Shown: in pieces, positions 1,001 to 53,947 of the stretch
How positions within the stretch are numbered: the stretch's first letter is position 1
Layout: the number at the start of each line of letters is the position of its first letter
Source of the DNA: Octopus vulgaris
Taxonomy: Eukaryota
Assembly: GCA_951406725.2 (NCBI GenBank)
Contig: OX597816.1
Span: forward strand, 135,098,001 to 135,162,000
DNA length: 64,000 nt
Direction: 5' to 3'
Program-made: the position numbers and the translations under genes
The notes under the pieces: generated by a model
Told to the model about the DNA's origin: nothing
Database searches by the model: none
What the model saw: the letters and a program-made list of their open reading frames with translations, nothing else

Positions 1001-1446
1001 TTAAAATTGAGAGTAGGTACAACTCTTTTGTTTTAGCAAATCATCTAATTCTTCTTGAAGTTGATTTTTATAGAATTCTAGTTTACTTATTTCGTTGCTT
1101 ATCGACCTTAAAGTTAATGGCAACTTATTGAACTCTGTCAACCGACATTCAAGAGAATTAGTGTTCTTCACAATTTTGTCTTTAGCTTTCACACTATCCA
1201 AAATAGCCCCATGGACAAGTGTTGTGTCAATGCCAGTAGATTTGACTTTTTCCTTTAATGTAGTGAATTTCTGAAAACCATTTTCCAATCCTACAACTGG
1301 CTCCTGACAAAAACTGATGGTCCTAGGTAATGTAGAATGGGTCAGGCCGTAGTGGATCTTCATACTCGAGTGGTTGTCAATACTGGGTTTTAATTTGAAT
1401 TTCTGTTCGGAGACCACCTGCATTTCGTTTTTAAGATTTATCAAAG
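1001..1446 (-). CDS. HAUS1: HAUS1-like, last coding exon
   Basis: Acceptor ttcgcag|CT, phase 1 matching the upstream exon. Open to TAA at 1001. STGIDTTLVHGAIL...RLTEFNKLP resembles the recalled HAUS1 C-terminus (ARGMDASLSHQSL...KLESYLDL). Confidence 0.8.
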
Positions 1447-2245
1447 CTGCGAAGCAAATACAAAATTAATTTTTAAAGAAAATTATATATACATAAATAT
1501 ATTTTTTTTAATATAAAAACCAATAGAATAAAGTCTGAAATGAATGTCAAGATAAAAAGCAAAAAAAAAAAAAGCCAAACCAACAAGCCATTCACATCCG
1601 TAATCAGCCGTTTAGCTTTTAAAAATGATAGATTTAAGCTAAATTCAGATATGCAATCATGTTAAAGGAATAAGAAAAATTAATGTGTATTAAAAGGAAG
1701 ACTAGTTTTCTTTGCATTGTGTGGGATAAAGGATGTCCACACGCTCACCAAGCCGTCTAGTTTATTGAAATCACTTCAAACGGAGATTTAAAAAAAATAT
1801 CGCTGTCTTAGCTTTCCTGGTGTGCAGCTCTTGCTTCTCAACGGTACTAGATATAATATGAAATAGGTTTAATGATACAAACAGGTAAACAGAACTCAAA
1901 AACACATGTACATATTTATTAAGTTAGTTGGCAGAAGTTACAAAATGACTCAAAGGCCGAACATTTTGTACTTCGGTACTTATATGTTAAGTTCCAATTC
2001 ACGACCCCACCCCGAGCGCCTTTGCAACTTCTGCGGATCAAGTTAAAAGTATAGTATAAAATATTAATTCTAACAGTGTAAAGCCACAAATTCGAATCTA
2101 TTATATGCTAATTTAATTCACTAGAACTTAAAGACATAACTAAAAGGTTTGATGCTGCTTATCCACTGTTCACGATGGAATGTTAATTTACAAATCGATA
2201 AGAGATAAATATGAAAATTATCGTTCAAAAATTAGACATACTTAC

Positions 2246-2584: not shown

Positions 2585-3019
2585 GGTTTCAGATTTCGGC
2601 ACAAGGGCCACGATTTCCGTTGGTGGGGGCGGAGTCGATTGTATCAACCCCAGTATTCAGCTGGTACTTATTTTATCAATCCTGAAAGGATGAAAAGCAA
2701 ATTCGACCTTGGCGGAATTTTAACTTAGAACGTAAAAAAGAACGAAATGCTGTAATGCATTTTGTCCAGTGCGGTAACGATTCTACCATCTAGTCGCCGT
2801 AATAATTCTAATTTTGGCACTAAGTCAGTAATTTTAAAGGTAGGGGAAGTCGACTACATTGACCAGAGCACTTCACTAGTGCTTTATTTTATCGACCCTG
2901 AAAGGATGAAAGGCAAAACTAATCTCGGCGGAATTTGAACAACTCGGAATATAAAGACATAAGAAAGGCTGCTGAGGATTTGTCCCTCGCGGTAATAATT
3001 CTACCAGTTTCACCGCCTT
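2585..3019 (-). mobile_element. Two tandem tRNA-derived SINE copies (family M, core GACTTTGCCTTTCATCCTTTCGGGGTCGATAAAATAAGTACC)
   Basis: Two consecutive ~215-bp copies; the same core recurs at 7155, 8630-9180, 9594, 51368, 63112 and 63662. Confidence 0.8.
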
Positions 3020-3072
3020 AATATAATTTCAAAACGTTGATAAGAATAAAAGGATTTACAATAAAAACATAC

Positions 3073-3147
3073 AAACGACTTCATTGATCCGGAGAGGATA
3101 CTAATACACCTATACAGTCTCTCTGTGACTGAACCAACTTCAGGAAT
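3073..3147 (-). CDS. HAUS1: Candidate upstream exon of HAUS1-like gene (ATG at 3084, MKSF)
   Basis: tag|ATT...ATG AAG TCG TTT|gtatgt. 75 nt open in frame; the phase-0 donor joins in frame to the exon at 2561. No homology support. Confidence 0.45.
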
Positions 3148-3576
3148 CTATAACCATTTCGATTAAAAGTAGCCGTGTAAGCTGTCTGAAGTTTCGGACT
3201 TCATCACAAAGTAACACATTTAAAGATTATGAAAAGAAAAGAGATACCCAGAGTCGCAACTTTGCATAAATGAATGGTTAGATAAGTACGAAAATGTTAC
3301 GTGAAGAGGACCAAAATATTTTAATCCGGATTTTAATTAAGATTTATGGTGAAGATCAAATAATCATTAGCTTAATGATCAATGGTACTCAGGAAAAGCA
3401 AAGGAGAGAATTTGAGGAGCGAGTGTTTCTCGCCACTACGGATGTGATTTTAAGATTTTTTGGTTCACTTAAACAGCAGACATTATCAATCGACCTTTCA
3501 TTGGAGAACAGTGAACATCATCAATTGAGGTTTCAAAAATTTTATATGGATATGACTATCACCAAAGGAAGGTAAA

Positions 3577-3897
3577 TACTTTACGGTACTTTGCAATAAT
3601 GCTGCCGCTTCATGCTCTTGCTTGATGAGGCTGGGGTCATCCCAGGTTAGTGGTCCCTGAGACATCATCATGCGTAGAGCCGACAAGGTCTACCAGCGTT
3701 CTCCATCGCTGGCGGTCCCGTACCAAGCCCTTTGCATCCTCCAAGGCGATGTCGTGCTTCTGGAGATCTTCCCCAATCACGTCCGGCAATATGATCCTGG
3801 GCCTGCCACGAGGCTTCTTCCAGCCCGTAGTTGCGTCGAATGAGAGTAGAGCCTTGGTAAGATGAGCTAGCGGGGGACGGAAGACGTAAATTTTGTG
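3577..3897 (-). mobile_element. RTE-clade LINE 3' fragment
   Basis: Translation GWKKPRGRPR...DRQRWRTLV is the typical RTE ORF C-terminus, followed by a short UTR and an AAAGTA-type tail. Confidence 0.75.
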
Positions 3898-4089
3898 TGA
3901 GATCAACAATTGTTACGGTTTTTGTACTTATTTAAAGTGAGAATGACAGTAAAAATTACCCTTAAGAAAAAGAGATAATTTAGGTTGGGAGTGTCACTTA
4001 AGGGTTAGTAAAAGTTAGCCATTATTCTAAACTACAGAAGTAAACCAGTATTATATTCTCTCAGTTGCAACAGATCCCTTTTTAAAAAA

Positions 4090-4093
<4 letters not shown>

Positions 4094-4135
<42 letters not shown>
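4094..4135. repeat. (TA)n microsatellite
   Basis: About 20 perfect AT units. Confidence 0.95.
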
Positions 4136-4138
<3 letters not shown>

Positions 4139-4408
4139 CTTAGGCTGTACAAACAGTTGTTTATTAATTGCAAAACATTCATGATTTGATGCTAATTCTA
4201 GGTTCCGTTTAGATAAAACTTTTCAAGTAAAGAAGAGAGTAGTTCAATTTTGCTTACGTGTGGATCCAATTTTATAGAAACTCTTGGTGTTGCCATGACT
4301 GGATGCTGAATCAGGGTTCTAAAGGTATTAAACTTCAATTCCGTTGAGACCCGAAACGTTTAATGCAGAAAAAAGCCTCAACAAGGACGTTAAATATTGA
4401 TGATATGA

Positions 4409-6065
4409 TTCTTTATTACCCACTAGGGGCGACACAGAGGGGGACACCACAAGACATGGGGACATAGAACATTATAATTAAAAATTTATGAAAAATGATA
4501 ATATGAAAGCGATGCTAAAGGCCCCATCCGTTAGCATCACTTACCTGTCCTTTGGTTTTCACCGTCACTTGAATGTTCTTTCCCAATACGAATAAATTCC
4601 ATATCCATTCTTACTCCGAAATACTCATCCATATTTTCCACGAATTCATCGCTCATTCTTATATCTTTCGCCTCCCAATTCTCCCTTTCACACCTCACCA
4701 TAAACTCATCTATGTTCTTCTTTTCAATCACAGCATACCTAGTCTCACCAACTTCATACCATTTATACTCTTCCATTAGCCTTTTAACTTCATTCTGTTC
4801 AGTCATCGTACAAATGTACGGCCTAGGTTCGATTTCAATCTCTCGTCTGTCTGTATTATATTTTTTCTTTTTTTGTTTTCTTGTTGGGGGGGAGCGGGTG
4901 TCTGCAGGGATAGGGTGGGACTCAGAGGGTGTGGGTGGTTTTGGGGTGGATTGGTGTTCCATGTTATTTTCTTTTCCTCGAATTCTTCTCTTCCTCTTCT
5001 TTCCAGCTTCCTTCCATTTCTGTGTATTCTCTTCCTCTTCTACTGTCTCCTTCTCCTCTGGTTTCTGTTTCTCTCTGTGTGGTTCGGAATCCATTTCTTT
5101 CCCTGGGGGAGGGCAGAAGGCTCTTATGTGACCCCTCAGGCCACACTTGTAACAACGTGGAGCTCTGCCCTCCACCCACACACTCATGACCACGTCTCCC
5201 AATCTGATGCTTTCCGCCAGGTCCACCAGTACCTCGTTCTCTGCCTGTACGTTCAGCTCCACTGTTACGCCTCTCCAGCCCTCGGTCTTAACCGAGGCAT
5301 GGAGAATATCCACTTCCTCCTCGTGGCCGCTGATCACAGCCGCCACAATCCACTCTGCCTCCACGTTTGGTGGCACTCCCTCCACCCTCACTCGTGTAAT
5401 CCTTCTATTCAAATACATAGGTAAAAGTGTTACCTTTTCTGACTTCACCGCCATCCTCCCCGCTGCAGTCCCACCTCTAAAATGCACCACTACGGCACCA
5501 CACTTGGATCCTCGAGTCAGAAAATTCATTTCCTCCTCCGCTCCTCTCAGGGCCTCCTCCATCCACTCCATGTTTACAACCTCTATTTTCCTCCTTTCAT
5601 TCGCGAACACCCGGCAAACAATGGTCCTCCCATCACACCATTCCCCTCTCCTGGGTGTCGGTGACAGCTCCACCTCACCGCCCTCCTCCTTCATGTATTT
5701 CTGGCAACTCGGCAACTTGGCCAAGTCGACACCCCTCTCCTCAGCCTTCCTGGTTACACCGGCACAGGCACAACCCAGCTCCTCGTCCAACCTCCTCGCT
5801 GCCACCCCCAGCTCCCTCTCAGACGCAGACAAGTCTGATAAAGACTCGAAAAATCCAGCCCCTTCTCCCATCAGCCTCATTGCCACTGCCCGCTCCAGCT
5901 CCTCATCTGTCGTGGACAAGTGTGTTAGAGACTCATAGTCCATTTCCTTCTGTCTGACAGACCGAAAACGGCCGCCAAAACAGAAAAAGTGTAACGCGCA
6001 GAACCAGCGAAATGCGAAACCGCATCAACGCCGTTCAAAATTTCCACAACAACAACAACAACGCT
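4409..6065 (-). mobile_element. ORF1-only non-autonomous LINE-like element (~1.65 kb)
   Basis: About 120-nt CpG-rich leader, ORF1, then ~125-nt T-rich 3'UTR ending CCCCTAGTGGGTAATAAAGAA. No ORF2; TSD not found. Confidence 0.65.
4537..5943 (-). CDS. LINE ORF1-like (gag-like) nucleic-acid-binding protein with CCHC zinc knuckle, L1/Tx1 type
   Basis: Uninterrupted 468-aa ORF, GC-rich against background. CYKCGLRGHIRAFC fits CX2CX4HX4C, preceded by an RRM-like segment (RITRVRVEGVPP) and followed by a basic low-complexity tail (KKRKRR). Confidence 0.85.
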   Translation of the reverse strand: MDYESLTHLSTTDEELERAVAMRLMGEGAGFFESLSDLSASERELGVAARRLDEELGCACAGVTRKAEERGVDLAKLPSCQKYMKEEGGEVELSPTPRRGEWCDGRTIVCRVFANERRKIEVVNMEWMEEALRGAEEEMNFLTRGSKCGAVVVHFRGGTAAGRMAVKSEKVTLLPMYLNRRITRVRVEGVPPNVEAEWIVAAVISGHEEEVDILHASVKTEGWRGVTVELNVQAENEVLVDLAESIRLGDVVMSVWVEGRAPRCYKCGLRGHIRAFCPPPGKEMDSEPHREKQKPEEKETVEEEENTQKWKEAGKKRKRRIRGKENNMEHQSTPKPPTPSESHPIPADTRSPPTRKQKKKKYNTDRREIEIEPRPYICTMTEQNEVKRLMEEYKWYEVGETRYAVIEKKNIDEFMVRCERENWEAKDIRMSDEFVENMDEYFGVRMDMEFIRIGKEHSSDGENQRTGK

Positions 6066-6501
6066 TTTTGTTCTTTTTTTTCCGAATTTCAGGAGCCTTA
6101 TTTTGTCCTTATTATATTTCAAATGACGCAAGCAGGATAATTTAGAATAAACCGAGTTAACCTTATAATTTTTTTTTTTTTTTCAAGTAACAAGAATTAA
6201 TGGTTTGGACAGTTCTATTTTTAGCTGGGGTGGGATTACCGAGTTAAATTGTTTTCTGGTTACCATTCCAGCTCTCTACGATTCTAGTTCAAATCCGCTA
6301 AGGTCAGCTTTGCTTTTATCCTTTCGGAGTCGCTAAATAAAGCATTGGTCCTGTGCTCGGGGAGTTGAAAGTGTAAAGCAAAAGTGTTGTAAAATAAAGC
6401 AAAGCTCTTGGCCTCTTGAGTTCTTGACTTCATTTTAATCTCTAATTTTCATTTTAAGTAGTTAATGTTCTTGAAAGAGCAGCGACGTCATACAATTTCA
6501 T

Positions 6502-6981
6502 CAGTGCCGTCTTAAGGCATGAGCACATTGGACTGTGTGGAGACACATTGCCTAGTGGTTAGAGTAGCGGACTCGCGGTCGAGGGATCACAGGTTCGAAT
6601 CTCAGACCGGGCGGTGTGTGTGTTTATAAGCGAAACACCTAAGCTCCACGCGGCTCCGGCAGAAGGTAATGGCGAACTTCTGCTGACTCTTTCGTCATAA
6701 CTTTCTCTCACTCTTTCCTCCTGCATCTAGCAGCTCACCTGCGACGGACCGGCGTCCCATCCAGGTGAGGAACCTATACGCCAAGGAAACCGGGAAACTG
6801 GCCCTTATGAGCCAGGCGTGGCTCGAGGAGGAACAAACAACATTGGACTGTGACTCGAGCACCCCCACCAGTCTAGCGAACCCAATGCTAATCTATGTAT
6901 GATGTGGTTATGTATGATAAGCTCCAGCACATTGATCTGCTCGGCGGCGGGGAGTCCCATAACGCTATTAAAATGGCTCTG
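6502..6981. mobile_element. hAT-type MITE with nested SINE
   Basis: Imperfect TIRs CAGTGCCGTCTTAA / TTAAAATGGCTCTG; 8-bp TSD AATTTCAT (6494-6501) / AATCTCAT (6982-6989). Confidence 0.7.
6538..6839 (+). mobile_element. tRNA-derived SINE (head A, tail X)
   Basis: A box TTGCCTAGTGG, B box GGTTCGAATC; perfect 13-bp TSD ACATTGGACTGTG (6525-6537, 6840-6852). Confidence 0.9.
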
Positions 6982-7154
6982 AATCTCATTTATCTTTCCT
7001 TATACATCCTAATTAAATGAGAAGGAATAAACATGTTACAAGAGTTAAAGAATGTCACAAATACTCCCATTTAATTAGTGAATGGAAGAAGAATATGGAC
7101 AAAAGTTGTACTTAATTATTAGCTAAGAGGACTGTCAATCTGTCTGCTTAAAGT

Positions 7155-7355
7155 AAGGCGGCAGAATCGTTAGCACGCTGCGCAAAATAGTTGGCGGCAT
7201 TTCGTCCGTATTTACGTTCCAAGTTCAAATTCCGCTGAGGTTGACTTTGCCCCTTTCGGGGTCGATGAAATAAGTACCAGTCGAGCACTGGGATCGATGA
7301 AATCGATTTAACCCATCCCCCAAACTTGCTGGTTTTGTGCCAAAGTTTGAAACCA
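7155..7355 (+). mobile_element. SINE family M
   Basis: GGCAGAATCGTTAGC...AGTTCAAATTCCGC plus the shared core. Confidence 0.8.
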
Positions 7356-7559
7356 ATATGTAGGTTTTAAATAATTTTCTCTGGTTGAATAATTCCAGCA
7401 GTAAACTGAGAAACAAAAAGCATCCAATGTCTGAATTACGGTAAATATAAATGTGCTATTTATCTATTTATTTATTTTAATAAAAATATGTTCATATTTT
7501 GTGTTGATTTAAATTCTACCCATGTCATTTTAAGATGCAAGGACAGAAGAAAAAATAAA

Positions 7560-7900
7560 GCTGGGTGGTAAGAAGCTTACTTCCCAACCACATGGTTCTG
7601 GGCTCAGTCCCACTGAGTAGAACCTTGAAAAAATGTCTTCTACTAAAACCTCGGACCGACCAAAGCCTTGTAGACGGAAACTGAAAGTAGCCTGTCGTAT
7701 ATGTGTGTGTGTGTGTCCACCATCGCTTGACAACCGATGCTGGTGTGTTTACGTCCCCATAACTTATCGATTCGGTAAAAGAGACCGATAGAATAAGTAC
7801 CGGGCTTACAAAGAATAAGTCCTAGGGTCCATTTATTCGACTAAAGGCGGTACTCTAGCATGGCCGCAGTTAAATGACTAAAACAAGTAAAAGAATAAGA
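7560..7900 (+). mobile_element. SINE family K (GGTAAGAAG head, internal (TG)n, GACTGAAACAAGTAAAAGA end)
   Basis: Matches copies at 10243, 16125, 37720, 47512, 49915, 53450 and 54830. Confidence 0.8.
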
Positions 7901-8629
7901 GAAAGAATCTACTTATTTTGCATTCAACTTTGGCTATGCTCAACGCTCTTAGCTGCCATTCGAACCACCGACCAAATGATATCGCCTTTAAAATTTATTT
8001 GAAGATAAATAATTTAACTCTTGGTAGTCCAAATCATTTTTAATAAGTTTGTCCTAAAGGTCTAAGTTTGCTTTCAGACTTTTAATTAGTCCTTTTTCCA
8101 TACCTTATGAATAATATAAAGCTTTCATGGGACTTAAGTTCCTGCTGATGGTTGAAAAAGAAGAAAGAGTGTGTATCATATACGACGCACAGAAGCCAGG
8201 AAGGCAAATGAAACTCAAGATAGGCAAAGGGTTAAGATCTTCACAATTTTTGGAACTTCTCTTCAATTACTATCATACATTTATTAATAATATACGTGTT
8301 TTCAAAGTGCAGTGTACAGATCATATTACATCTTCCTCAATTGGAATACTACTTGTATCTGCGGTTATGGAAATTTGAGATTTTCGAATTAGTTAACGTC
8401 ACCTTGTATGTATTTGTTAAAACTAAGATCTCATTGATCTACATAGCATTTCCATTCAACAGTTTTTGTATTTTCTAATATATTAAATATGTATTAAAAC
8501 CTCTCTCTCAGTTGGATGTTCGTATTTCATTTGAAAATAATCGACATTTCATGTTGCCTGGAATGACATTCAACAATTTGAACTACATTATTTTTCATAT
8601 TGTATCAGTATAAATTTCTCACGTAGGTA

Positions 8630-21339: not shown

Positions 21340-22080
21340 CAATCATCTCTGATCCATTTCATCATCATCCAGTGTTTTAAATCCAAGTTTTCTCCTCATT
21401 AATGGGAGTGGCCATATCTACCTCAATGCCATAGCAACCACCCTCACACCATCTTGCCCTGATTTGAGTGTCCTCCTAATCTCCTCCTTCACCTGTCCCC
21501 TCCACGTTTTCCTCAATCTACCTCACTTTCTCAGTCCATTTACCTAAAATTTAAGCACCCTCCTCAGAACATGCTCCTCATCCCTCCTTCAACCCCAGCA
21601 TCCCCATCAAGTCCTCAGTCCTCCTCTTATCAAACAGCTTCACTCCACACATTTCTCTCACCATTGCTCTCTCAGTCCTTCTCAAAATTGTCATCTCTCT
21701 CTCCCTCAAACACCATGTCTCACTCCCATACAGCAATGCAGCTCAAGCAACTCCTATAGCCCTTTCCTTTCATCTTCATTGAGAACCTTTTCCCACATAA
21801 CAACGTTCCATATTCCTTGAACTTCACCCAGACAAGTCTCACTCTTGCTGTCACAGCTGCTTCACATCCACCACTTACATCCACCTTATCTCCCAAATAA
21901 CAAAACGCTCTCACCACTTCCACCTCTTCACATAGTGTTTCCACTGGTTCTCCCAACTCTCCAGCTCTTTTCTCACATCTTCCACAAATAAACTCTCTTG
22001 CCAGTCTTAGGGTCACCTTCTTCCTTTTCATACATCTACCAGGAATCTATTTCTCACACCTCTACACAACACCATTTTTG
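21340..22080 (-). mobile_element. RTE LINE RT/C-terminal fragment
   Basis: FCYLGD...GCEAAVTARVR..W.KF...KGKGYRSC motifs. Confidence 0.75.
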
Positions 22081-27016: not shown

Positions 27017-28030
27017 TGAAAGTGTAACTGCTAGAGTAAGAATAGCTTGGGCAAAGTTCAGAGAGCTCTTACCTCTGCTGGTGACAAAAGGCCTCTCACT
27101 CAGAGTAAAAGGCAGACTGTATGACGCATGTGTACGAACAGCCATGCTACATGGCAGTGAAACATGGGCCGTGACTGCTGAGGATATGTGTAAGCTCGCA
27201 AGAAATAAAGCCAGTATGCTCTGATGGATGTGTAATGTCAGTGTTCATAGTCGACAGAGTGTAAGTACCTTGAGAGAAAAGTTGGACCTAAGAAGCATCA
27301 GTTGTGGTGTGCAAGAGAGACGTTTGCGCTGGTATGGTCATGTGGCGAGAATGGATGAAGATAGTTGTGTGAAAAAGTGCCACACCCTAGCGGTTGAGGG
27401 AACCTGTGGAAGAGGCAGACCCAGGAAAACCTGGGACAACTTGGTGAAGCACGACCATCAAACTTTAGGTCTCACCGAGGCAATGACTAGAGACCGAGAC
27501 CTTTGGAAGTATGCTGTGCGTGAGAAGACCCGGCAGGACAAGTGAGACCATAACCCATGGCCTCTACATGGGATGTAGCCAGTCCACTTATGCATACCTT
27601 TCCTTCTTGGGACACAAAACTCTACTTGTGAAGACCTGTTGAGGCAAGTGAAAATCCAAAATCCAAAATCAAAATCAAAATCAATCAACATCAATGGAAA
27701 TTGCAGCTGTGATACCAGTGCCGGTGGTACATAAGAGAACCATCCAAACGTGGCCGCTGCCAGCGCCGCCCCGACTTGCCTTGTGCCGGTGTCACGTAAA
27801 AAGCACCATCCGATTGTGGCCATTTGCCAGCTTCATCTGGCATGTAAAAAGCCCCCACTACACTCACGGAGTGGTTGGCGTTAGGAAGGGCATCCAGCCA
27901 TAGAAACATTGTCAGATCAGACTGGGCCTGGTGCAGCCTTCTGGCTTCCCAGACCCCAGTTGAACCGTTCAACCCATGCTAGCATGGAAAGCAGACGCTA
28001 AACAATGATGATGATGATGATGATGATGAT
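27017..28030 (+). mobile_element. 5'-truncated RTE LINE with 3'UTR and (TGA)n tail
   Basis: ARVRIAWAKFRELLP..KGRLY..HGSETW..RLRWYGHV..GRGRPRKTW..DRDLW; one in-frame TGA. Confidence 0.9.
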
Positions 28031-40144: not shown

Positions 40145-41669
40145 CTTTAATACAAGACAACAGTGGGGAAAACAAATAATAGTATTTTGAACTGATAGAA
40201 TCTTGTGTAATCAACATTAAAAAATACATATATACAATATGAAAAAATCTCCAAAATACACAAACAAAATATTCACACATACCATTACTGTCATCAGAAA
40301 AGATATCATGACTAACGTCAGCAAATACAACAATAATGCTATCATCATCATCTACAATATCATCATTAACCTCAACTTATATCCATTTCTAAAGTTGTCA
40401 TGGATTACATACACCTTCATTCAGTATATCCCTATATGTTACAATACAAAGTGGTTTCAGTAGTAAAGTTTACAATAAAAATTTACAACTGAAATCTAAT
40501 AAAGAATACTAATTCCAATTTTTATCAGTTATATTCAATTTCTCAATTAGCTACTGGTTTGGATTCCTGGCTCTCACCCAGGTGGCTCAGGTTTGATTCC
40601 TGGCATGGGAATGCTATGCTTTTTGTACTCAAGAAGACCCACCCACTACAACAGAATTGAGATATTAAAACCAAGGTGCCATGTAAAAAGCATCGGTAAT
40701 GGTGCCATGTAGAAAGCACCCAGTACACTCTGGCTGGCATTATGAAGGGCATCCAGCTGTAGAAACCAAACCAAACAGACTATGGAAGATGCTGTAGCCC
40801 CTGCTCAAGCCAGTTCTTGTCAAGCTGTCCAACCCATGCCAGCATAGAAAACTGACATTGATGATGATGATGAGTAGGATCTCAGCTGGCCTAGAGAGGT
40901 CTGTGGTGTAAACTGCAAGAACACTATAAATAATATTTTATTAACTCACAAAATTGAGTTCAGATCCTTCACTGGGACTTATCTCAGTGATAAATTGCTG
41001 GTGTGGTATAAACAAAGCCAGTGGCTTATTTATGCTCAAAAGGCTTGGGTACTTCTGGCTGATGAGACACATATTGAAACACCAGTGTCCCGGAATTCCT
41101 TGCAGCAATGAGTTGAGTGTGTTATGATCATACTATCATCATAAAAGTGTAAAGTTGTTCCCCTGTGGCATACACAACAGCAACTAGCATTTGAATGTGT
41201 TGGAACATATTAAGAATAACTGAGTAAATCATTGTAGTAAATCTCACTGTACACAGTGCAGATAATGATTTTTTAACCTTTTTTTTTTCATTTCAGTGCA
41301 ACATCATACAACAGAATTTCGTTAATACTGTCTATAACAGACAGTTGTAACCATCTTGCCTTTATAATAGAATATCATCACAAACAGAAAAATAGGGATT
41401 AACCAGACTAGCTTCAATATTGCATTGAGATTTCATCAGTGGTTGGCATTAGGAAGGGCATCCAGCTGTAGAAACATTGCCAGATTAGATTGGGGCCTGG
41501 TGCAGCCGTTGCTCTCCAGACCTCAGTAGTAGGAAAACTATCTAATTCACAATTTCATTCACTGAATTCAAGTTCTCCAGCGGACATGGGCAATTACAAA
41601 AGTATTCAAACTATAGCGCTGTTTTAATAATTCTTATCACTAAAGTGTACTTGATATGAATAGACTCAC

Positions 41670-42001
41670 GTGCTTCCACTAAGATGAATGTCTCCTTCAG
41701 AAAATGTAACAAATTTTTTCCGCAGCTCCTCACCCTCAAACGAAACATACTTTTTACGCATCTCTTCTGTCTCTGGGCATGTTGCACTTCGCTTCTTTAA
41801 GTCTTCACGTAACTGATGCAAAAGGTCAGCAACATAAGGTTTGTTTTGACAATGTTTATTGATTTCTGGCATGTGTTGGCCCAAAAGATGAGGAGAGGAT
41901 GCTGCAATCATCTTCAAGCCATTTAAGTACAATGGAAGGGTAGTTTTGTCAGCATTTGGCAGCTGTCCCATGAAGTACTGTAGACTACGTTTAGCATCAT
42001 T
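41670..42001 (-). CDS. VEPH1: VEPH1 coding exon 6
   Basis: ttttgacag|AAT ... AC|gtgagt; 332 nt open frame. Confidence 0.9.
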
Positions 42002-43934
42002 CTGTCAAAATTGAAATAAAACAAATTGAAACAAAACAAAACAAACAAAAAATCACCAGACATTCTTCATTTTCTTTCTTTAAAAGTTAATTAATTTTGA
42101 CAGATTCCCTTCTAGGCATTTTCTTTTTATTGCTGCTTTTACATTAACCTTTAGTTGGCAAGGTTTAGATAATTCAGTAATGCATTGTTGCTGAAAATTT
42201 CTTTTGTAACTGTAACCACTTGACTTATTGTATTAAGAGTTGTTCTTGTCACTAAAGTGAAATTCAAACCACAAATGAATGTTATCACTTGTAGAAATAA
42301 TTTCTGATATAAAGGTTAGTCTCTATATTAAATATGAAGTGCCAATAATTAGCAACAAACAATTGTCACACTTGTGGAATATATATAATTCATTTGTTTT
42401 ACATTTGAATTTCTGTGGCCGATGCCAGTGCTGCTTGACTGGCATCTGTGCCAGTGGTATATAAAAAACACTATTCAAGCGTGGTTGAGACCATGATTTT
42501 ATAATCACAAGTACAATTCTCTAACCACTAGGCAACATGCCTTCAACACAAATACTTATTACTGAGGCATTATTTTACAGCCAGATACCTTTCCTGTTGC
42601 TGACTCGTACCTGTTTTTTAAGTAAGGGATTCTTTTATCCCACTTGCCAACAGATGCATGGAGCTACAGGAGAATTTGTTCACACTACAATATGTCATAA
42701 TTGTTGGCATTTTTTTTACATATTGCCTGTTTGGTGATAGAAAAGGCATCCAGCCGTAGGCAATAAACCAACCAATTTAAATGTACAGGTGAGATGTTAA
42801 CTCCACAAGTTTCATCACAAGGTACAAGGACAGCAATTCTAAGAACTGATACAGAGGAGAGAGAACTCATTAGTCCTTCTGTATTGAACAACCATTCGAG
42901 AAGCAACTGCACACTAAAATACACCTAGCTGACCGGTGACAGGAAAGACATCCAACAGCAGAAACCATGCAAAAAGGAAACATGAACTATGAACACTACA
43001 AGCCACCTGTTTAGAAAGGTAATAACTCCAAATAAGAGAGCTGGTACAGAGTAAAGAGAATTCTTAATCCTCTCACATGGGGCAACCTCTCATACTGATA
43101 GCACAAAAAAATGCATACAACCAACACTGTAAGACATACATGACAATTTCTGGGTGTGTCAAATGACATGGACCATAATGGACTGACCCATGCCAGCATG
43201 GAAAAGCAAGCATGAAAGGATGAAGACAATGGTGATTATGATACTTAGCTCTAAGTCAAACATGATTAAGCAGATTTATGAATAAGGCATTCAACCATGA
43301 TATATCATCTTATTTTCTATAAGTGTACTCAAGACTAGGACTACACCATCCTGAAGGATGCAGTATTGTTTGAAGGAAATGTAGCTGCTATTTCTAGCAG
43401 CTTGAGTGACCATGTAGATGCTTCTTCATTTAGCCAAATGAGATCGTAGCCGTGGCCGATGCCAGTGTCACATAAATGACCTTTTTAAAAGTACCTTTCA
43501 ATCGTCGGGCAAGATGTTGTGCTTGAGAAGACCTGTTGAGTCAAGTGAAATCGTAGTCGTGGTCGGTGCCTGTGCCAGTGGCATGTAAAAAGCATCATTC
43601 GAGCGTGGTTGATGCCAGTGCCACCTGACTTTCTCCCGTGCCAGTAGCACATAAAAAGCACCCACTACATTCTCAGGGTGGTTGGTGTTAGGAAGGGCAA
43701 CCGGCTGTAGAAACCTTGCCAGATCAGATTGGAGCCTGGTGCAGCCTCCTGGTTTGCCAGTCCTCGGTCAAACCATCCAACCCATGCCAGTATGGAAAGT
43801 GGATGTTAAACGATGATGATGATGATGACTCCACAGGGTGTGTAGCTCAGAGATTGGAGTCGTTCAAAATCAAGCCATTACTTCTCCACACAGAGAGGTC
43901 AGGGTTGTTTAGGAGGAGAATCTCCTTCCATTAA

Positions 43935-45750
43935 GACTTCAGAAAAAAACTATTTCTGGCATTTTCTCTCTCACTTTGCTTAATTTAGGCTTTCTGGACA
44001 CACTTTCTTCACTCTTCACACTTGCAGGTTGATTCATTAGAGACATATAAAAAGAAGTTTGCTTTTTCCTGCCTTTCAAAATGCTACAAAAATGTGCCAG
44101 AGCAGTGTCATTAAATAAAGCAGCTGCACAACCTGTAGATACTTTTACAGGATGATATTTTTCTACAAATTCAAAAGCATACTGCCACTTTGCCCACACT
44201 GTCTTTATGTCACTCGTAAGATAGCCTTCTCCACTACACTGTCCTCCCCAGGGGAACCAATCTTTTCCACCACATCCGAATGCTGCTGCTCCTCTGAGTG
44301 CAAGTCCATATTGATGACTTTTTTTGGCAGTTAACAATGTTGTAGTGCTCCTTCCAAAACTCACAAAGAGTTAGATTTGTATTTTTGGTGACTTCAAAGC
44401 ACCAACAAAACAGACGTTTGGTGTACAATTTCTTAAAATTAGAAATCACCTGTTTGTCCATGGGCTGCCAGATAGGGATGGTGTTGAGTGAAGGTATAGA
44501 ACTTTTATGAATTTAAGTTTGTCCATGATATCATCTTTGAAGTAAGGAGGGATTTTCTTGAGAAGAAAATCATTCTCCAGAAGGTACTTTCTCATTGCTG
44601 GTCTGAAGATAAGGTTGACCCACTTGGTGAAGAACTGCCTGGTGCACAAGGCTTTAATGTTTGCCCGCTACATGACCTGCAGCTTCTCCTTCATGATTCT
44701 GTGCAACTTGAATGCTCATGGGTTTTCGGAATGGTAGACAAGGAGTGACTTAATCTTCATGTCTCAACTCACACTGGTACAAAAAGTGAGAGTTAGCCTG
44801 TCTTTCATAGGCTGGTGGCCTGGCATTTTCTTCTCTTCTGCTGTTATGTAGGTTCTTCTGGGCATTTTTTTCCCCAAAAAATACCAGTTTCATCACAGTT
44901 GCATACCTATTGTGTGATATTCCTCTTGGCTGCAATGAGCTGACGGAATTCACACACAAAATCCTCAGCTGCCTTCATGTCAGAACTTGCTGCTTCTCCA
45001 TACCTGATGACACTATGAATACCAGTCCTCTTTTTGAAATTATCAAACCAGCCACAACTGGCCTTAAAAGCCTCTGCTAATGTCTCCTCTGTCAATGTTC
45101 CAGGGTTCTGCTTCAAGAGATCCCCATACAGTGCTTGTGCTTTCTCACAGATGATGGTCTCTATAATCATATCCCCTGTGAGTTGCTTCTCATTGATCCA
45201 CAGGAGAAGCAATTTTTCCATTTCTTTGTGGACAGATGTGTGTTGCTTAAAGAGCCTGGAGACACCCTTTTGCTGTTGTAACAGCCTTGATCTCGTCCTT
45301 TTTCTTCAGATTGTCGACGTGCTATGTCCACTACATGCACTCCTCTCTCTTTATCAATGATTTCCTTCTTCAATTCTATTGTAATCAGCTTTTTCTTCTT
45401 CTCAGCACTGTCTTTTGCACTAATCTTCTTAAGACCCATGGTGAACACAACTAATTATCATAAAATAATAGCAAAAAAAAACACACACAAAACTAAAAAA
45501 AACACTGGGACAAACACAACAGAGATGTTGACATAAGATAAACATGTGAGCTGAGCAAGCAGAGACTACACTTGAGCAGAGACTGCACTTGAGCAGAGAC
45601 TGCATTCAAGCAGAGACTAGCGGCTGCTTGTATGAAACTCACTCATACTGTGGATTTCCACTTGTACTTCAAGAAAAAAATTTGCATGGGCCTTGGCTCA
45701 TACAGAAAATTACTCATACAATAGTGCACTTATACTGCAAGGTTCTACTG
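43935..45750 (-). mobile_element. Decayed Tigger/pogo DNA transposon
   Basis: TA|CAGTAGAACCT terminus at 45750. CENP-B-type HTH (ITIELKKEII; IICEKAQALY; FKASCGWFDNFKKR) and DDE remnant (PMDKQVISNFKKLY) split by frameshifts; other TIR not found. Confidence 0.88.
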
Positions 45751-45986
45751 TATTTAGCACATGCTCTGCAGCCTAATAACCAAACATTCCAATATTTATC
45801 CTTCAATTTTTAGAACTTACTTATACTCATTCATCTTCCAGGGAACTGCTTTCAGTATTTCACCATCAACTTACCTTCAATTAATTCAATACAGTAAATA
45901 GTTTTAAGTATTTCTAAGTATTTTAAAATTTAAAACCATTTGTTTGCAGTAATCCTTAAAGTTTGTTGCTAAAGTAAGTTTCTTAC

Positions 45987-46196
45987 CTCACTAAGAGTAG
46001 CAATGCTTCCAATGATAGCAACTGCAGGTTCTGTGTAGACAGGGTAAACAGTGAGTAATGTCTGCAAGGCAGTAACATAAGCCAACAGCGAGCGAGGATT
46101 CACACTAGCTATGTCCACGAGAATGTTCAAAACTGTTGGAGCCATTTCTGGCTGCTTTAGGTAATCACAAAACACAGGAACATATGGCTGCAACAG
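45987..46196 (-). CDS. VEPH1: VEPH1 coding exon 5
   Basis: ttttag|CTG ... GAG|gtaaga; 210 nt, phases 0 and 0. Confidence 0.92.
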
Positions 46197-46918
46197 CTAA
46201 AAGTAAAAAGAATACAAAATATAATACCCAGTAGTAAAAAAACATACAATACATAATAAATTCATCACCCTTGCCATAACCAATATTATCATCATCCAAC
46301 ATTATAGGTTAAATACATGTGTTTCTGCAGTACCTTGGTATTATGCACTCAAGTGGCCAGCCTCAAATTGCAATCACTAGTCTGAGGTATATAAACAAAG
46401 TGTAAAGTCTATCTGTTGATGTATAACAGCACCATGGAGGAAGAGAATTGAATTTTGAGTTATATGCAGCTCTAATAATGTAAACATTATTGATGTCACA
46501 TACTTACTGTATGTGTTATATTTATGCACTCATTAGCTGTGGAACAGGATCAGAGGGAAAAGTCCCTTTAAGATACTAAGTGTTAAAACATTGAATACTT
46601 CAAACCAAGTGAGTCAACTCATCCCATAGGGGATTGAGAAATATAGATACTGATATTTTGCTGTTTTTGCAGCCCATTGGCATTGTGCAATTGAGTCACC
46701 ACAAAACAAATTGCAATTGCTGGTCTGATGTTTATATGCAAATAGTGTAGAATCCATCTGCTGATGTACAACAGTGCTGCATAAGTAAAACAAAGTTAAA
46801 ATTTTGTATTTCAACAAAGCCATTGAGAAATATAATTCAAAACAGCAAGACTAAATACAACAGTAAGTACAAGAACATTTATACAGGAAAAAAGTGATAA
46901 TAATAATAATTATACATA

Positions 46919-47259
46919 GGAGGCGCAATGGCCCAGTGGTTAGGGCAGCGGACTCGCAGCCATAGGATCGCGGTTTCGATTCCCAGACCGGGCGTTGTGA
47001 GTGTTTATTGAGCGAAATCCCTGCTGTACTCTTTCACCACAACTTTCTCTCACTCTTACTTCCTGTTTCTGTTATACCTGTATTTCAAACGGCCGGCCTT
47101 GTCACTCTCTGTGTCACGCTGAATCTCCCTGAGATCTACGTTAAGGGTACACGTGTCTGTGGAGTGCTCAGCCACTTACACGTTAATTTCACAAGTAGGC
47201 TGTTCTGTTGATTTGGATCAACCGGAACCCTCGTCGTCGTAACCGACGGAGTGCTTCCC
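46919..47259 (+). mobile_element. tRNA-derived SINE (head A, tail Y)
   Basis: A/B boxes; 12-bp TSD TAATTATACATA (46907-46918, 47260-47271); CpGs retained. Confidence 0.9.
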
Positions 47260-48189
47260 TAATTATACATAACTGATGGTTGAGTAATGAGCATGTCAAA
47301 AGAGTCTCATTAACTGTTGCAATTAAGGACATCTCAGCTCATCAAGCTTCATGCCCTCCAGTTTTCATGACTGATGATTTATATGAATCATGACTTGAAC
47401 AATCAGTAGTAAGCAAAGTAGGAAGAGAAGTTTATTCATAATGACAGTTACTGAAACATTATGTAACACCAACATCTTCACGACTATCTTGGTTATTTAG
47501 TGTATGTTAATTTATTCTTTTACTTGGTTCAGTCATTTGACAGCAACTGTACTGGAGCACTACCTTGAAGGGTTTTAGTTGAACAAATTGACCCCAGGAC
47601 TTATTTCTTAAGCCTAGTACGTATTCTATTAGTCTCTTTTGCCAAACTGCTATGTAATGGGGGCATAAACACACCAACACCTGTTGTTAAATGGTGATGG
47701 GGGGACAAACACAGACATAAAGACAGACAGACACACACACATATACGACAGACACAAAGGCATATTCTGTTAAGAATATAGTAAAATACAGTATGAAGCA
47801 CGTCCACCTTCAAATTTCAGCCTGTGCTAAACAGTAGTAGTATTATATGTACTTCCAGGTTTGTGTTTGGATATCTGTTGTGTGCGAATAGATAATTGAA
47901 TTAGTGGACCTAATATGGAGATTAAAAGAAAGGAAAATAAAATATGAAATAGAATGATCAATAATAAAGAATGCACACCCATATAATATCCAGCATATGT
48001 GACCTATGCCTTGAGGAAGCCTTGTGCATTCTATTAAGTAACAAAGACTTAGTAAATAAGCATGCTGAGAAAATACCAAGATGTTGCCACCATGTCAAAT
48101 TTGCATTTTCCAGATACAACACAGTTGAATAATAATAACTCAGTGAAATCTCTCCCTCTCGCCTTCCCCCTATCCATGTGTGTTGGGTT

Positions 48190-48478
48190 GTATTTCTATA
48201 TATACATATGCATGCCAGTACACGTATTTAGCATGAATGAATCTATCTATATATACACACACACATATATATATGCATATATGTGTATGTATATGTGTGC
48301 GTATGTATATATGTACATATATTTGCATATGTGAGTGCATGTACATATCCATATATGAGTGTGTGTATATATATATATGTATATATGTATGTATGTGTGT
48401 GTGTGTCTGAGCATTAGTACATATATGGATCTATATGTGAACAGACTCCAAACTTTTTCAGTTATATATATATATATA
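48190..48478. repeat. Compound (TA)/(TG) low-complexity tract
   Basis: Alternating purine-pyrimidine runs. Confidence 0.85.
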
Positions 48479-49552
48479 TGGAAAAAAAGTCAAGGTAGAA
48501 AATGCTAAAATAATTTTATAAAAAACATTTCAGTACCAGTTTCAGTCATTGAGACTTTTTCAATGGCAAGTATGGAAAACATTTAAATTTTGGAAAAATT
48601 AAATGAAAAGTTTTTTAAAAGAATATTTGCAAAGTATTCAATTACAAGGGGCATTTTCCTTGTTTCTGTCTGTCTCTGTCTCTCTTGTTTAATCTCGTGG
48701 GTTCCAGGTCATTGAGAATTCTTGGAAGAAGAAGAAAGAGGAGGAAGAGGAAGAGAATGCGGGAGTGCTATGATAGCAGTAGGATGTTAAATGATCAAGT
48801 GCCCTGAAGTAACTTGTGGATGATAGTAGTGATTGAATTCTTGAGATATCTCTTCACGTGTGCTTCAGTGAACCTGATATACGCACTAACCTGCTCTGGG
48901 TGTCAAGAGCAATACATAGGCCAAACAAAAAACAGTCTACGTCAAAGGATGGCTCTGCACAGATCCCAGATAAAAATTTAAAAAAACAGAAAAATAGCAT
49001 TCAGCCAACACATTGACATTTGCGCCAATAACAAAAATCCAAGTTTCAGAATTTTTCCCTTCTATCAATTCAGGGACGATGCAACCTGTAGCCAACGAAT
49101 TAGTAAAGGGTCCCTCTTTATTACACAATACAGACTCCTTTTGACGCATCCACAACAAATGACATATCCACCATGACCTTAGAATAAACACCCATGCAAA
49201 TATTAAAATGATACATTCAAAAGAGATACCCAAGTATTCACTAAAAACAGTCCCAATCACTGCTATAATCCACAATGAGTCACTTTTAGGTCACTTGACC
49301 TTTTAACATCCTACTACTATCCTACCATCCTGCATTCTCTTATTATTCTGTCTCCTTCTTCATTTTCTTCTTCCTCTCTGCTACCGCCTTCCTTACTTTT
49401 TACTACTACGGCTGTTTAGAATAACACCTACACAAATATTATAAACAATGCATTCAAAAGAGATATCTCGAGAATTCAAACACTACTACCATCCACAACG
49501 TCACTTCAGGGCACTTGACCATTTAACATCCTACTACTATCATAGCACTCCC

Positions 49553-49607
<55 letters not shown>

Positions 49608-49868
49608 CATCCTTCTTCTCTGCTAAGAATTCACAACAACCTGGAACCCACAAGAGTAAACAAGAGAGACAGAGACAGGCAGAAACAAGGAAAATGCCAC
49701 TTGCATTTGAATACTATGCAAATATTCTTTTAAAGTACTTTTCATTTATTTTTACCAAAATTTAATTGTTTTCCATACTTACAGTTGAAAAAGTCTCAAT
49801 GACTGAAACTGGTACTGAAATGTTTTTTATAAAATTATTTTAGCATTTTCTACATTGAATTTTTTCCA
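48479..49868 (+). mobile_element. Penelope-like element fragment with inverted terminal arms
   Basis: GIY-YIG remnant FTCASVNLIYALTCSGCQEQYIGQTKNSLRQRMALH from about 48853. Arms 48479-48855 and 49457-49868 are inverted copies; flanked by (TA)n. Confidence 0.85.
49782..49817 (+). ncRNA. Putative variant minimal hammerhead ribozyme (inverted copy at 48531-48566)
   Basis: CAG-TTGAAAA-AGTC(TCAAT)GACT-GAAAC-TG-GTA-CTG; hammerhead topology, but the core deviates from CUGANGA. Confidence 0.45.
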
Positions 49869-51145
49869 TATATATATATCAACTCATGTGTTCCTTTTCA
49901 ACCTTCTATACACACACACACACAGATATACAGACAACAGGCTTCTTTCAGTTTCTGTCTACCAAATCCACTCACAAGGCTTTTATTGGTCTGAGGCTAT
50001 AGAAGACACTTGCCCAAGGTGCCACACAGTGGAACTGAATTCAGAACCATGTGGTTGGGAAGTAAACTTCTTACCACATGGCTACACCTGAGCCTCGTTA
50101 TAAATTTTAAAAAAAGACACACTGATAATTCCTGTACTAAGATACAACCTTTGTTCATACTTAAGTTTCCCACTGTATGTCCAGTGAATAAAAATCAATT
50201 TATTTCTGTGCAGCATGGGCAGATCTTACTGTCACACAGTATTATATATTTGATATGTATCATAGAGTGGCTATGAACAAAAATTAAAATAGTAGTTAAG
50301 AATTGAAACCCTAAGGCAAGCAATGTTACATACTCTTAAGAAATGTTTGTTAATCTACTTTTTCCAGTTTAATTAGACATCAGCTGACAAATGATTGACA
50401 CTTCAAAGGATATAAGTCTATGTAGACATTTGTTCCAACAACAAATCCATTTCAAGTAAGAAAAGAAAAAATAATACATCTTTAACAAAGAAAAGTAGTG
50501 ACAACCTAAATCAACTTAGTTTCTCTTTAATCTGAAGTTAATAGAACTGACAGCACAGGTATACAAGAGACAACTAAATTGACAGAAATTATAAACCAAC
50601 TAATCTTATGTTATTGTTGTATTTAAGAAGTTAACTCCGATAAAAATTGAGTTTATGGCCATTCAGCAATTTCTTGACAAAGCTGAAATTTTTTACAAAT
50701 TAAAAGAAAACCAGGTGTTGCTTAGAAATGACAGACTAATCCACAGAAAATGAAACACAAAAAAAGACATAAATAACAAGAAAAGTAGCAACAACACAAT
50801 ACATTTACACCTGAATGCATATTAATAATTTATACATATTCAATACATACATAATTTTTTTCATCTTTTTTCTCATTGCAATATCATTCCATCTGAGTAT
50901 CTACATTCTCAAAATCGATCTAACTACTTCAATTCCAGTTGTTTATAGTCTAATTCACAATCTTTTTTCTAATCAGTGTACACATCATCCATTTGCCTTA
51001 CATATTAGTGTTAGTACAAGTATTATTTCTGCATATATAAATCTATAATTTTCCTCTTCATTGTTAACATGCTAAAGGGTTAATGAACTAGAAAGATTGA
51101 ATGCAAAGGAAATATCCTTTGCATTCGATCTTTCTAGTTCATTAA

Positions 51146-51360
51146 CCCTTTAGCATTCAGATTATTTTGCCAAATGTAATGCTTATTATTTACATTGCTT
51201 GGAATAACTCATGCATTTTGTAGCTCAAGACTTCAATGAAGTGACTGTTTATTTTTAGAATGATATTGTAGGGTAGGTGTGAGAGGTAGGATCTGGCCAG
51301 TTTGAACCTAAAACAGGTAGAATATTTTGGCCGGATATGGCTGGTTTAAATACTAAAGAG
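51146..51360. mobile_element. piggyBac-type MITE
   Basis: TTAA TSDs; same family as 35191-35397. Confidence 0.85.
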
Positions 51361-51757
51361 TTAATATTGTTTCAAAGTTTGGTACAGGACCAGCAATTTT
51401 AGTGGAATGATATTACTTGATTACATGAACCCCAGTACTATACTGGTACTTTATTTTATTGACCCTAAAAGGATGAAGGGCAAATTTGACCCCAGCACAT
51501 AATGAGCTGGAAGAAATGATGCTAAGTATTTTGTCTGACATGCTAACAATTAAGCCAGCTCACCACTTTATTAATGTTGCTCATCCACCAGACCATACTA
51601 ATATTCATTAACAGATACTATTTATGACTATTTCACACACTCTCTCTCATACACATCTACTATCTCTCTTTCTTTCTCACACACATGCACATACTCCTTT
51701 ACTCACAACTTTCACTCATAGAAACATAATCTCTTGCACAAAAACAACTCCCCACCT

Positions 51758-51794
<37 letters not shown>

Positions 51795-52520
51795 AACACA
51801 CACATACACAAATCTTGGGTAAGAGACTATTACCCGTTTGTTCCACCCTTCTTCATCTAAGTCATGTAAAAACAAAACAAAAACATTATCGCAAATACAC
51901 ACATGCATTTTCACTCTCTCTCTCTCTCACACACTCCTACACTGCACATTCTCCCACATGTTCTATCACTCATATAGACATGCAAAACAATGACAATAAA
52001 AACATAGAATTAAATGAAATCATCCAAAAGTAAATTGCCACATTTTAGAATCAAAGAACACTTGCAACATAAAAAAAAAACCCATCTCTCAAAAATCCTA
52101 CGCTCCTTGATTACCAACCAATAGTGACCTCTCCCACTTTTCAGTTCATGGTCTAGAGTTGCATATATGAGAATAGACCCATTCAAACCATCCAATCTGG
52201 CCACTTTCTATGAATTTCAAACAGAGCTTGGCTAATGGTAATGCTATGCCAAAAGGTTTATCAATCCTTAACTGTTGTTGCCTTCCACTTTAGTAAAACT
52301 GCTACACCATAAGCTTTTGGAGAGTTGTCTATAATTCTCAACCAAAGGTCCTCACAAATAGAGTGCAGAGTAGATCTTTATCAACACCTAGTGTATACCC
52401 CCAGAACATTGTTGCTAATGCCAGCTGCTTATATTCTGTAGAATGGAAGGATTGGTGTTCCACTAGCCATATTGTTAGACATATAGAGGACTGAGGGATA
52501 GTAATGTTCCAGATGCCAGA

Positions 52521-52523
<3 letters not shown>

Positions 52524-52577
<54 letters not shown>

Positions 52578-53075
52578 CCCTGATGCAGTACCAGACAGTG
52601 GCTCTCATGGCTTCTGATCTTAACTGATTGGAAGTGTTATCATGTACATTGTTTTGTCTTAGTATAAAAGATGGGCTACAGCAAATATTCTGTTCAATAC
52701 CACAGATTTGCTTGTCAGTTGTTTGACCGTAACCAGTTGACCATGTCCCTTAGTGGCTGACGATATGTGCATCTCTGATCACAAGCAGAAGTAGTGAGGG
52801 GCATCATAGCTGTGTGTTGAAAGGAATTCTTAGAGGTTTGGATAATTCACCTTTGGAAACATGGGAGGTTCGTTCAACATCCTTAAACAATCCTTATTCA
52901 GAGACCTTTTGAGCGGGATGGGCTACTCAACCAGAAGAAAATTCTAACTGGTCCCCACCTGCAAGGTCATGCAATGTTTATCTTGATATGAGATCACCAT
53001 GTCACCGTGCACATATGGTTGTGATGCATGTGCCTGGTGTACCGTTATCAGATAGGTAGTCATGATGGGTATACT
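52524..53075 (-). mobile_element. Repeat with (ATT)n tail inserted in an older CR1/L2-like remnant (about 52210-53430)
   Basis: (AAT)n at 52524-52576; the internal segment recurs at 57546-57700; the downstream flank has an RGPQ-like CR1 C-terminal remnant. Confidence 0.55.
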
Positions 53076-53604: not shown

Positions 53605-53649
<45 letters not shown>

Positions 53650-53947
53650 TGTCTGTGTCTCTCTGTCTTTGTCTTTACATTGTGTGATAGTTGTAAGCGA
53701 GTGTGATCCATTTCCAGCCAAAAGGAAATATTACCTTACGTGGAAAAGGTGAGAATTAACAGCAGGAAGGGCATCTGGCCATAGAAAATCTGCCTTGGCA
53801 AACTCTGTCTGACCAAAGGAAGCATGGAAAAGTTGACGTTAAAACAATGACTATGATGATGATTATGATGTCTTCCTCTTAGACAACATATACTAAATGT
53901 TCAATCTTGGTAGCACATCATATATTTATAATAATAATAATAATAAA

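Follow-up and report, generated by a model that had tools for sequence, protein, structure and literature searches.

RESULTS

An ORF1-only element upstream of a HAUS1-like gene

The element found at positions 4409..6097 (minus strand) of the window, the 64,000-nt stretch of Octopus vulgaris DNA analyzed here, is best explained as a young ORF1-only copy of a non-autonomous Tx1/L1-type element, likely mobilized in trans by a Tx1 element with the same tail and likely derived from an RNA that had been hyper-edited by ADAR. Based on the sequence comparisons described below, we assign this reading a probability of roughly 0.82. The features of the element and of the adjoining host gene are as follows.

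4409..6097, minus strand: complete non-LTR element with ORF1 only (family A), inserted as a solo copy, with boundaries taken from other copies
5944..6097, minus strand: 5′ UTR common to family A, as judged from other copies, and presumed to hold an internal promoter
4537..5943, minus strand: ORF1, 468 aa, homologue of the ORF1 of the autonomous Tx1-type LINE
5389..5899, minus strand: tract hypermutated by A>G, with 55 such changes on the sense strand and 35 replaced residues, from comparison with other copies
5164..5631, minus strand: two predicted RRM-fold domains, aa ~105-260, approximate limits, as modelled on a natural family member
5113..5154, minus strand: CX2CX4HX4C zinc knuckle, aa 264-277, from sequence
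4609..4806, minus strand: conserved C-terminal alpha/beta domain, aa ~380-445, following a charged low-complexity linker
4409..4536, minus strand: 3′ UTR, 128 nt, the final ~45 nt being the tail common to the autonomous Tx1 element, families B/C/D and a SINE
4258..4296, minus strand: first coding exon of the HAUS1-like host gene, outside the element, same direction, 112 nt downstream

ORF1 runs uninterrupted over 468 codons from an ATG at 5943 to a stop at 4539-4537, as the first-pass annotation of this DNA had described. That annotation had also placed a UTR of about 125 nt, devoid of endonuclease or reverse transcriptase sequence, directly after the stop, and we indeed find a 3′ UTR of 128 nt, whose terminus at 4409 reads AATAAAGAA, with no ORF2 and no APE or RT behind it. 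The other end of the element, previously set at 6065, lies instead at ~6097 when boundaries are drawn from the other copies. The small terminal stem-loop that had been proposed is weak by folding (z-score of -2.2 for the last 62 nt and -1.5 for the whole window UTR), and a conserved stem-loop at this place is unsupported by the folding of the tail of the autonomous partner described below (z-score of 0.4; one earlier folding of this tail used a stretch ending short of the tail's end). Rfam gave no matches in 3000-8000 of the window. ORF1 and two opposite-strand shadows of it are the only ORFs of at least 200 aa (stop to stop) in the 64 kb, and comparison of the flanks revealed no recognizable target site duplication (TSD) at the window copy.

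The element lies 112 nt upstream of the start codon of the HAUS1-like gene (PF25762 HAUS1, E 1e-20; 4258-4296, 2232-2561 and 1001-1465, minus strand), in the same direction. In P0004, a public gene model, this gene is joined to the terminal part of the element ORF1, and a 93-aa ORF beginning with ATG is found at 3294-3575 (plus strand), antisense within HAUS1 intron 1. Elsewhere in the window, exon-like ORFs of a host gene are seen on the minus strand at 41666-42004, 53948-54475, 55091-55429 and 59296-59838 (within 41666-59838), and short fragments at 44907-45305, 21720-22046 and 27225-27545 are presumably transposase- and RT-like.

The ORF1 protein is predicted to carry tandem RRM domains

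The single CX2CX4HX4C knuckle noticed in the first pass is present at aa 264-277. Pfam searches with the window ORF1 gave sub-threshold matches only, among them zf-CCHC (E=0.057, below cut-off) and Ephrin (E 0.007, likewise below cut-off), the latter put down to chance; phmmer against the PDB returned nothing significant, and no L1 ORF1p match was obtained in either the Pfam or the PDB searches. Single-sequence AlphaFold prediction of the window protein reached a pLDDT of 39, and the structure model used here is that of a natural family member with a 75-row alignment, not of the window protein itself. In this model, pLDDT exceeds 90 over aa ~80-280, and the top Foldseek matches are the tandem-RRM proteins IMP3 RRM12, Sxl, U2AF65 and HuR (E ~3e-5), suggesting that the RRM-like region described earlier is real and double. 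The same model does not agree with a basic tail: the basic stretch is predicted to be an internal linker (aa ~285-370), followed by a folded and conserved C-terminal domain (aa ~385-445, pLDDT 70-80). In the Atlas, the ORF1 core is placed near CCHC proteins and ZCCHC3 RNA-binding domains (0.90). Database proteins matching ORF1 are gene-model fragments labelled Octopus vulgaris.

Family A and its ORF1-only relatives

When the DNA of the element was searched against its own genome, 60 matches were obtained, and many of them span the full element at 84-92%. Using a 32-mer anchor from the 3′ part of ORF1, we counted at least 205 copies of family A (35+13+157 exact matches of three variants of the 32-mer), 73 of which were examined (30, 13 and 30 per variant, the first ones by contig order). 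The tail was reached in 70 of these 73 loci and 46 were full length, and APE or RT sequence within 600 nt after ORF1 was present in none (0/73). The junction from ORF1 through the UTR to the tail is constant and recurs at dozens of loci on many contigs, and TSDs of 17 and 18 nt were identified at two copies (L002 and L054). Multiple copies, a constant 3′ end, 5′ truncation and some TSDs are the marks of retrotransposition found across the family.

The first-pass annotation had left two alternatives, a young non-autonomous ORF1-only family using RT in trans or a domesticated gene, and had proposed a BLASTN-type check of the junction. This check returned many copies with the same ORF1-to-3′UTR junction and TSDs at some of them, and the first alternative is supported by the at least 205 copies, the constant junction, these TSDs and the tail-sharing partner. 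The annotation had further considered that all other copies might carry ORF2, which is contradicted by the 73 loci examined. The second alternative is unsupported in view of the copy number and of the protein-neutral changes in the window copy (see below).

Three related ORF1-only families, B, C and D, adjoin family A copies, with protein identities to A of 56% for B and 30-36% for C and D. APE or RT sequence was absent inside the copies of B (0/15) and C (0/6), and D is known from 2 distinct copies only. The dN/dS ratio was 0.20-0.24 for unedited A copies versus B (dS 1.2-1.5) and 0.28-0.31 between A subfamilies, and these values of 0.2-0.3 indicate that ORF1 is kept by purifying selection between lineages, at the level of the element. 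In this assembly the ORF is intact in 10 of the 66 scorable copies and broken in 56; near-identical copies are broken at different A-runs, suggesting that many of these breaks may be assembly homopolymer errors. As far as its structure is concerned, family A is very probably a real, young, ORF1-only family of Tx1 type.

A probable autonomous partner with a common tail

The arrays in which family A copies are found also contain an element of two ORFs that carries the domains Exo_endo_phos, RVT_1 and zf-RVT; in the copy read, the frame is interrupted between APE and RT. The window ORF1 shares 32% identity with the ORF1 of this element (E 3e-39), and the Atlas cluster nearest to the element's RT is the ‘Transposon TX1 149 kDa’ family (0.97), the assignment to the Tx1 clade being based on this Atlas name together with the domain set. 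The best 39 other matches to this element are 98% identical. Its final ~45 nt align with the tails of families A-D and of a SINE, so that the search for an autonomous Tx1/L1 element with a common 3′ end, which had been suggested earlier, was successful. In the genome, the core tail motif occurs 44,717 times as an exact match, and the LINE of a SINE-LINE pair as a rule has its tail in common with its passengers (PMC4494074, in excerpt). We conclude that this element is probably the young autonomous Tx1-type LINE serving family A, and that family A is likely mobilized in trans by its ORF2p, the basis for the latter being the common tail and the common target. A very abundant SINE with the same tail (L011 875-1300; L050), which also occurs in tandem, is likely a passenger of the same Tx1.

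Head-to-tail arrays at a Helitron-like target

The autonomous LINE and the ORF1-only families are stacked head-to-tail at one site of a Helitron-like repeat. This site abuts the 3′ ends of the autonomous copies in 15/20 cases, which lies above the value of >20% of flanks of one type by which target preference has been defined for Tx1 elements (PMC4494074, in excerpt). Arrays of family A are often preceded by the other half of the target sequence, and the two halves joined form a repeat of ~1 kb with Helitron-type ends. Non-autonomous Helitrons start with 5′ TC, end with a 3′ hairpin followed by CTAG and insert between A and T; all these features are seen in several copies of the repeat, and the name Helitron is given here by these end features. 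A 25-mer of the repeat has 1,280 exact matches, and among the first 30 repeat copies, 24 have an empty site, 2 carry members of the clan, 3 a deletion and 1 a SINE.

Autonomous copies are flanked by a duplication of the 12-nt target, and newly inserted copies attach either to this duplicate or to the 5′ end of a relative already in place. The sequence ACATGGAGGAAA was considered as the elements' own 5′ end and rejected, as it is the target site regenerated as TSD. For family A, 56/72 of the 3′ ends abut a relative or the Helitron-like repeat and 16/72 unrelated DNA (one TA-repeat match being counted among the unrelated). At one locus the order is the 5′ part of the repeat, 14 A copies and then the autonomous element. 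At two loci the inter-unit spacer duplicates the locus's own upstream flank, which fits sequential insertion. Within the 14-copy array, the units differ from each other by only 1-25 nt, as compared with 43-66 nt to an outside copy, and 7 spacers of the array are almost the same, so that local DNA-level duplication may account for part of the array growth beside retrotransposition. The window copy is an off-target solo insertion.

The Helitron-like repeat itself seems to carry a decayed Tx1-type ORF1 fragment just behind the target site (L079 2224-2700; L061 2280-2830; L113), as judged from weak tblastn matches in L078 and L084.

Clustered sense-strand A>G changes in the window copy

Compared with the majority of 74 other copies, the window copy carries 99 substitutions, including 59 A>G, 9 G>A, 3 T>C and 6 C>T. 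On the sense strand A>G thus exceeds T>C by 59 to 3 (p 2e-14), and the share of A>G sets the window copy apart from the other 74 copies (p 1e-11). The changes are clustered, 55/59 A>G lying within 510 nt (5899-5389), and depend on the neighbouring nucleotide: within this tract, adenosines are changed after a 5′ A or T in 47/89 cases versus 8/80 after a 5′ G or C (p 1e-9), and after 5′-G in 5/59 cases versus 50/110 after the other neighbours (p 3e-7), with 5′-A (32/62) and 5′-T (15/27) equally frequent. Clustered A>G with depletion of 5′-G has been described as the signature of ADAR (PMC2873906, in excerpt). As for the direction of the change, paralogue B and families C and D retain the residues that are changed in the window copy (YAG, KYG); since these paralogues keep tyrosines where the window copy has cysteines, the change went from A to G. 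The edited haplotype is unique among 40 scored matches, the next best being 86% identical.

Further copies were scored as edited when at least 1 kb long, with at least 8 A>G changes making up at least half of all changes. In the anchor-picked sample, 5/61 copies pass this test including the window copy, and 4/60 without it, and an excess of T>C, G>A or C>T is seen in 0/60. Additional edited copies (L051, L057 and L066) come from a sample enriched by the edited query. The edit sets of the edited copies are different and partly overlapping. Edited copies are also present in family B (1/15) and absent in family C (0/6). No A>G excess was detected in the flanks of edited copies, and no A>G cluster in any of 20 autonomous copies over 1.5 kb, picked as the youngest. 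A confinement of the edits to the 5′ 950 nt was rejected, as L158, from the anchor-picked sample, is edited from nt 616 to 1653.

Two edited copies, L053 (locus L196) and L051 (locus L197), have lost the A of the start codon to editing, which is kept in the window copy. At L194 1326-4846, an A and a B copy stand side by side within one Helitron-like repeat, each bearing A>G edits in a different tract. Pieces of family A in inverted orientation adjoin sense copies at two places (L056 2660-5317; L042 4050-6630) and are possible sources of fold-back or antisense RNA.

Could such a tract have arisen at the DNA level, by a DNA adenine deaminase, by error-prone RT or repair or by a TpA-type hypermutation, and not by RNA editing? 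An action of ADAR on DNA within RNA:DNA hybrids has been proposed (PMC10209271, in excerpt), the two neighbouring edited copies at L194 could point to a locus-level process, and a source of double-stranded RNA was not found: a natural copy has no long internal stem, and the inverted copies at C26 and L056 do not match the edited tracts, C26 being one inverted pair over the 5′ half that does not explain the editing. However, A>G on the sense strand is what RT would be expected to fix from inosine in its template, whereas edits made on the cDNA or template strand would appear as T>C, and the observed changes affect the sense strand only (59:3). The equal use of 5′-A and 5′-T further argues against a TpA-specific process, the depletion of 5′-G corresponds to that described for ADAR (PMC2873906, in excerpt), and the flanks are unedited. 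We consequently regard a DNA-level origin as unlikely, and the window copy as a likely ADAR-edited retro-insertion.

The open frame of the window copy is expected in the absence of selection

An A>G change creates no stop from any sense codon. The edits of the window copy are spread evenly over codon positions, and silent edits (16/55) are as frequent as expected (49/179; p 0.76), with 35 residues replaced, six of them Tyr>Cys. Only 12 private changes of the window copy are not A>G, indicating that it is young. Taken together, a type of change that makes no stops, edits blind to the protein and youth let an open frame be expected without selection, and the earlier reasoning from an intact ORF fails for this copy.

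These results bear directly on the possibility that the window ORF is an RNA-binding gene acquired by domestication or exaptation, in the manner of L1TD1 or ZCCHC3, or that the copy is kept for the regulation of HAUS1. Its frame is intact where 56/66 scored copies are broken in the assembly, it lies 112 nt upstream of HAUS1, its junction is present in runs under three organism labels (the 3′ ones reaching 26 nt on the element side), and its ORF1 core resembles ZCCHC3 domains. Against this, it belongs to a family of at least 205 copies and has kept its UTRs and tail, and it is young, with changes that could not have produced stops and that replaced 35 residues irrespective of the protein, rendering domestication or a regulatory role very unlikely. 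What remains of the earlier reading of the element is the family likely mobilized by RT in trans; domestication is unsupported, the argument from the intact ORF does not hold for this copy, and the editing, the head-to-tail arrays and the Helitron target had been missed.

The window locus in independent sequencing runs

In contigs of the independent run X2, the 5′ junction is bridged without differences and the edited tract is covered by a stretch of 185 nt with 1 difference and another of 313 nt with 7, the latter at a depth of 3.7. The 6 listed differences comprise 3 extra A>G, 2 unedited positions and 1 transversion, and error is possible at this low depth. In the 52-nt patch at 5633-5684, X2 differs in its edit pattern (the 3 extra A>G and the 2 unedited positions), for which gene conversion, a second edited copy and low-depth error are candidate explanations. 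Runs X3 and X4 extend from the flank into an A-type tail by 26 nt, which is below the 31-nt rule applied for bridging, and leave gaps in the 5′ flank and over part of the edited tract; such gaps prove nothing. Overall, the junction at the window locus was retrieved in contigs of runs under three organism labels, no empty site was seen at this locus in the runs examined, and one presumed-RNA run yielded only two short fragments whose ends are loose.

A unique deletion from an ordinary LINE, or an error of assembly or sequencing, would be compatible with the missing TSD at the window copy and with the gaps in two runs. Yet dozens of loci, spread over many contigs, show the same junction, an independent run contains both the 5′ junction and the edited sequence, and different edited copies carry different, partly overlapping edit sets, which makes such an origin extremely improbable.

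DISCUSSION

Our results suggest a model in which the element RNA would encode its own tandem-RRM/CCHC chaperone, and the partner ORF2p would recognize the common tail and prime at the target. A share of the element RNAs would meet antisense RNA in germ cells and become A-to-I edited, and RT would fix the inosines as G in DNA. In the case of the window copy, the product would have landed off-target upstream of HAUS1, its protein likely damaged.

ORF1-only LINE derivatives are known from several clades, namely HeT-A (Jockey), HAL1 (L1) and Ag-Sponge (CR1) (PMC5786205, PMC5753468, in excerpt), and the list of ORF1-bearing cases in the available part of PMC5786205 holds Jockey-, L1- and CR1-derived ones only. 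The mammalian HAL1 is, like family A, a non-autonomous LINE derivative encoding ORF1p only (PMC5753468, PMC5786205, in excerpt). In contrast to HAL1, the octopus partner is of Tx1 type, ORF1 consists of tandem RRM and CCHC, a specific 3′ tail is common to partner and SINE, insertions are directed to a target, and no fewer than three ORF1-only lineages coexist (A, B and C, with D in two copies) at 30-56% protein identity. An identification as HAL1 in the strict sense, that is, as a mammalian L1 derivative, was rejected, the partner RT being nearest to the Tx1 149-kDa cluster and ORF1 giving no L1 ORF1p match. HeT-A (with TART/TAHRE) and Ag-Sponge are likewise ORF1-only and are thought to multimerize with partner proteins (PMC5786205, in excerpt). 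These two belong to Jockey and CR1, respectively. The octopus arrays are interstitial, inside a Helitron-like repeat, and not telomeric. HeT-A forms head-to-tail arrays with its partners.

Targeting of non-autonomous DNA transposons by Tx1-clade elements has been described for Xenopus Tx1L in Tx1D and for crocodilian SINEU-3/Tx1 in Mariner-N4, where, as in the octopus, tandem insertions sandwich the TSD (PMC4494074, in excerpt). The octopus target differs by its Helitron-type ends, and its passengers are protein-coding, ORF1-only and assembled into trains of up to 14 copies. With regard to editing, genomic fossils in print are APOBEC G>A changes on LTR elements (PMC4866542, in excerpt), and edited vertebrate retroelements have in common with the octopus copies clustered mutations of one strand and one type that are fixed by RT (PMC4866542, PMC2873906, in excerpt). 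The APOBEC changes result from cytidine deamination of the cDNA, whereas those in the octopus are A>G with the neighbour bias of ADAR, on a non-LTR element.

The O. vulgaris repeat annotation lists 80 L1-Tx1 families, and the available part of it makes no mention of ORF1-only or nested elements (PMC13282606); the available part of PMC9115989 holds no Tx1. In the literature searched, which leaves most subscription journals outside, we encountered no report of a Tx1-derived half-LINE, of Helitron targeting or of ADAR-edited genomic LINE copies; prior entries in Repbase, Dfam or O. vulgaris repeat libraries are possible.

The present findings add the Tx1 clade and the molluscs to the range of protein-coding half-LINEs, and the several lineages with ORF1 under selection offer a natural setting in which to test why ORF1p is retained by elements that are not autonomous. 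They also show that an intact but A>G-edited ORF can mimic a conserved gene, and public gene models fuse ORF1 pieces to host genes, such as HAUS1. The edited copies would be direct genomic traces of the RNA intermediate.

As a tentative proposal, to which we give somewhat less than even odds, octopus germline ADAR may act on retrotransposon RNA as APOBEC does on vertebrate retroelements. About 1/15 of new family insertions would then bear tens of A>G changes, wrecking the RNA-binding protein without breaking its frame and leaving a datable heritable record of RNA editing in the germline; the substrate would be a clan of old ORF1-only lineages depending on one Tx1 RT and forming HeT-A-like trains inside a Helitron. 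If the changes are indeed due to ADAR, cephalopod A-to-I editing would reach the germline and heritable DNA at a measurable rate (4/60 copies), and a role of ADAR as a mutagenic brake on LINEs would become testable by counting.
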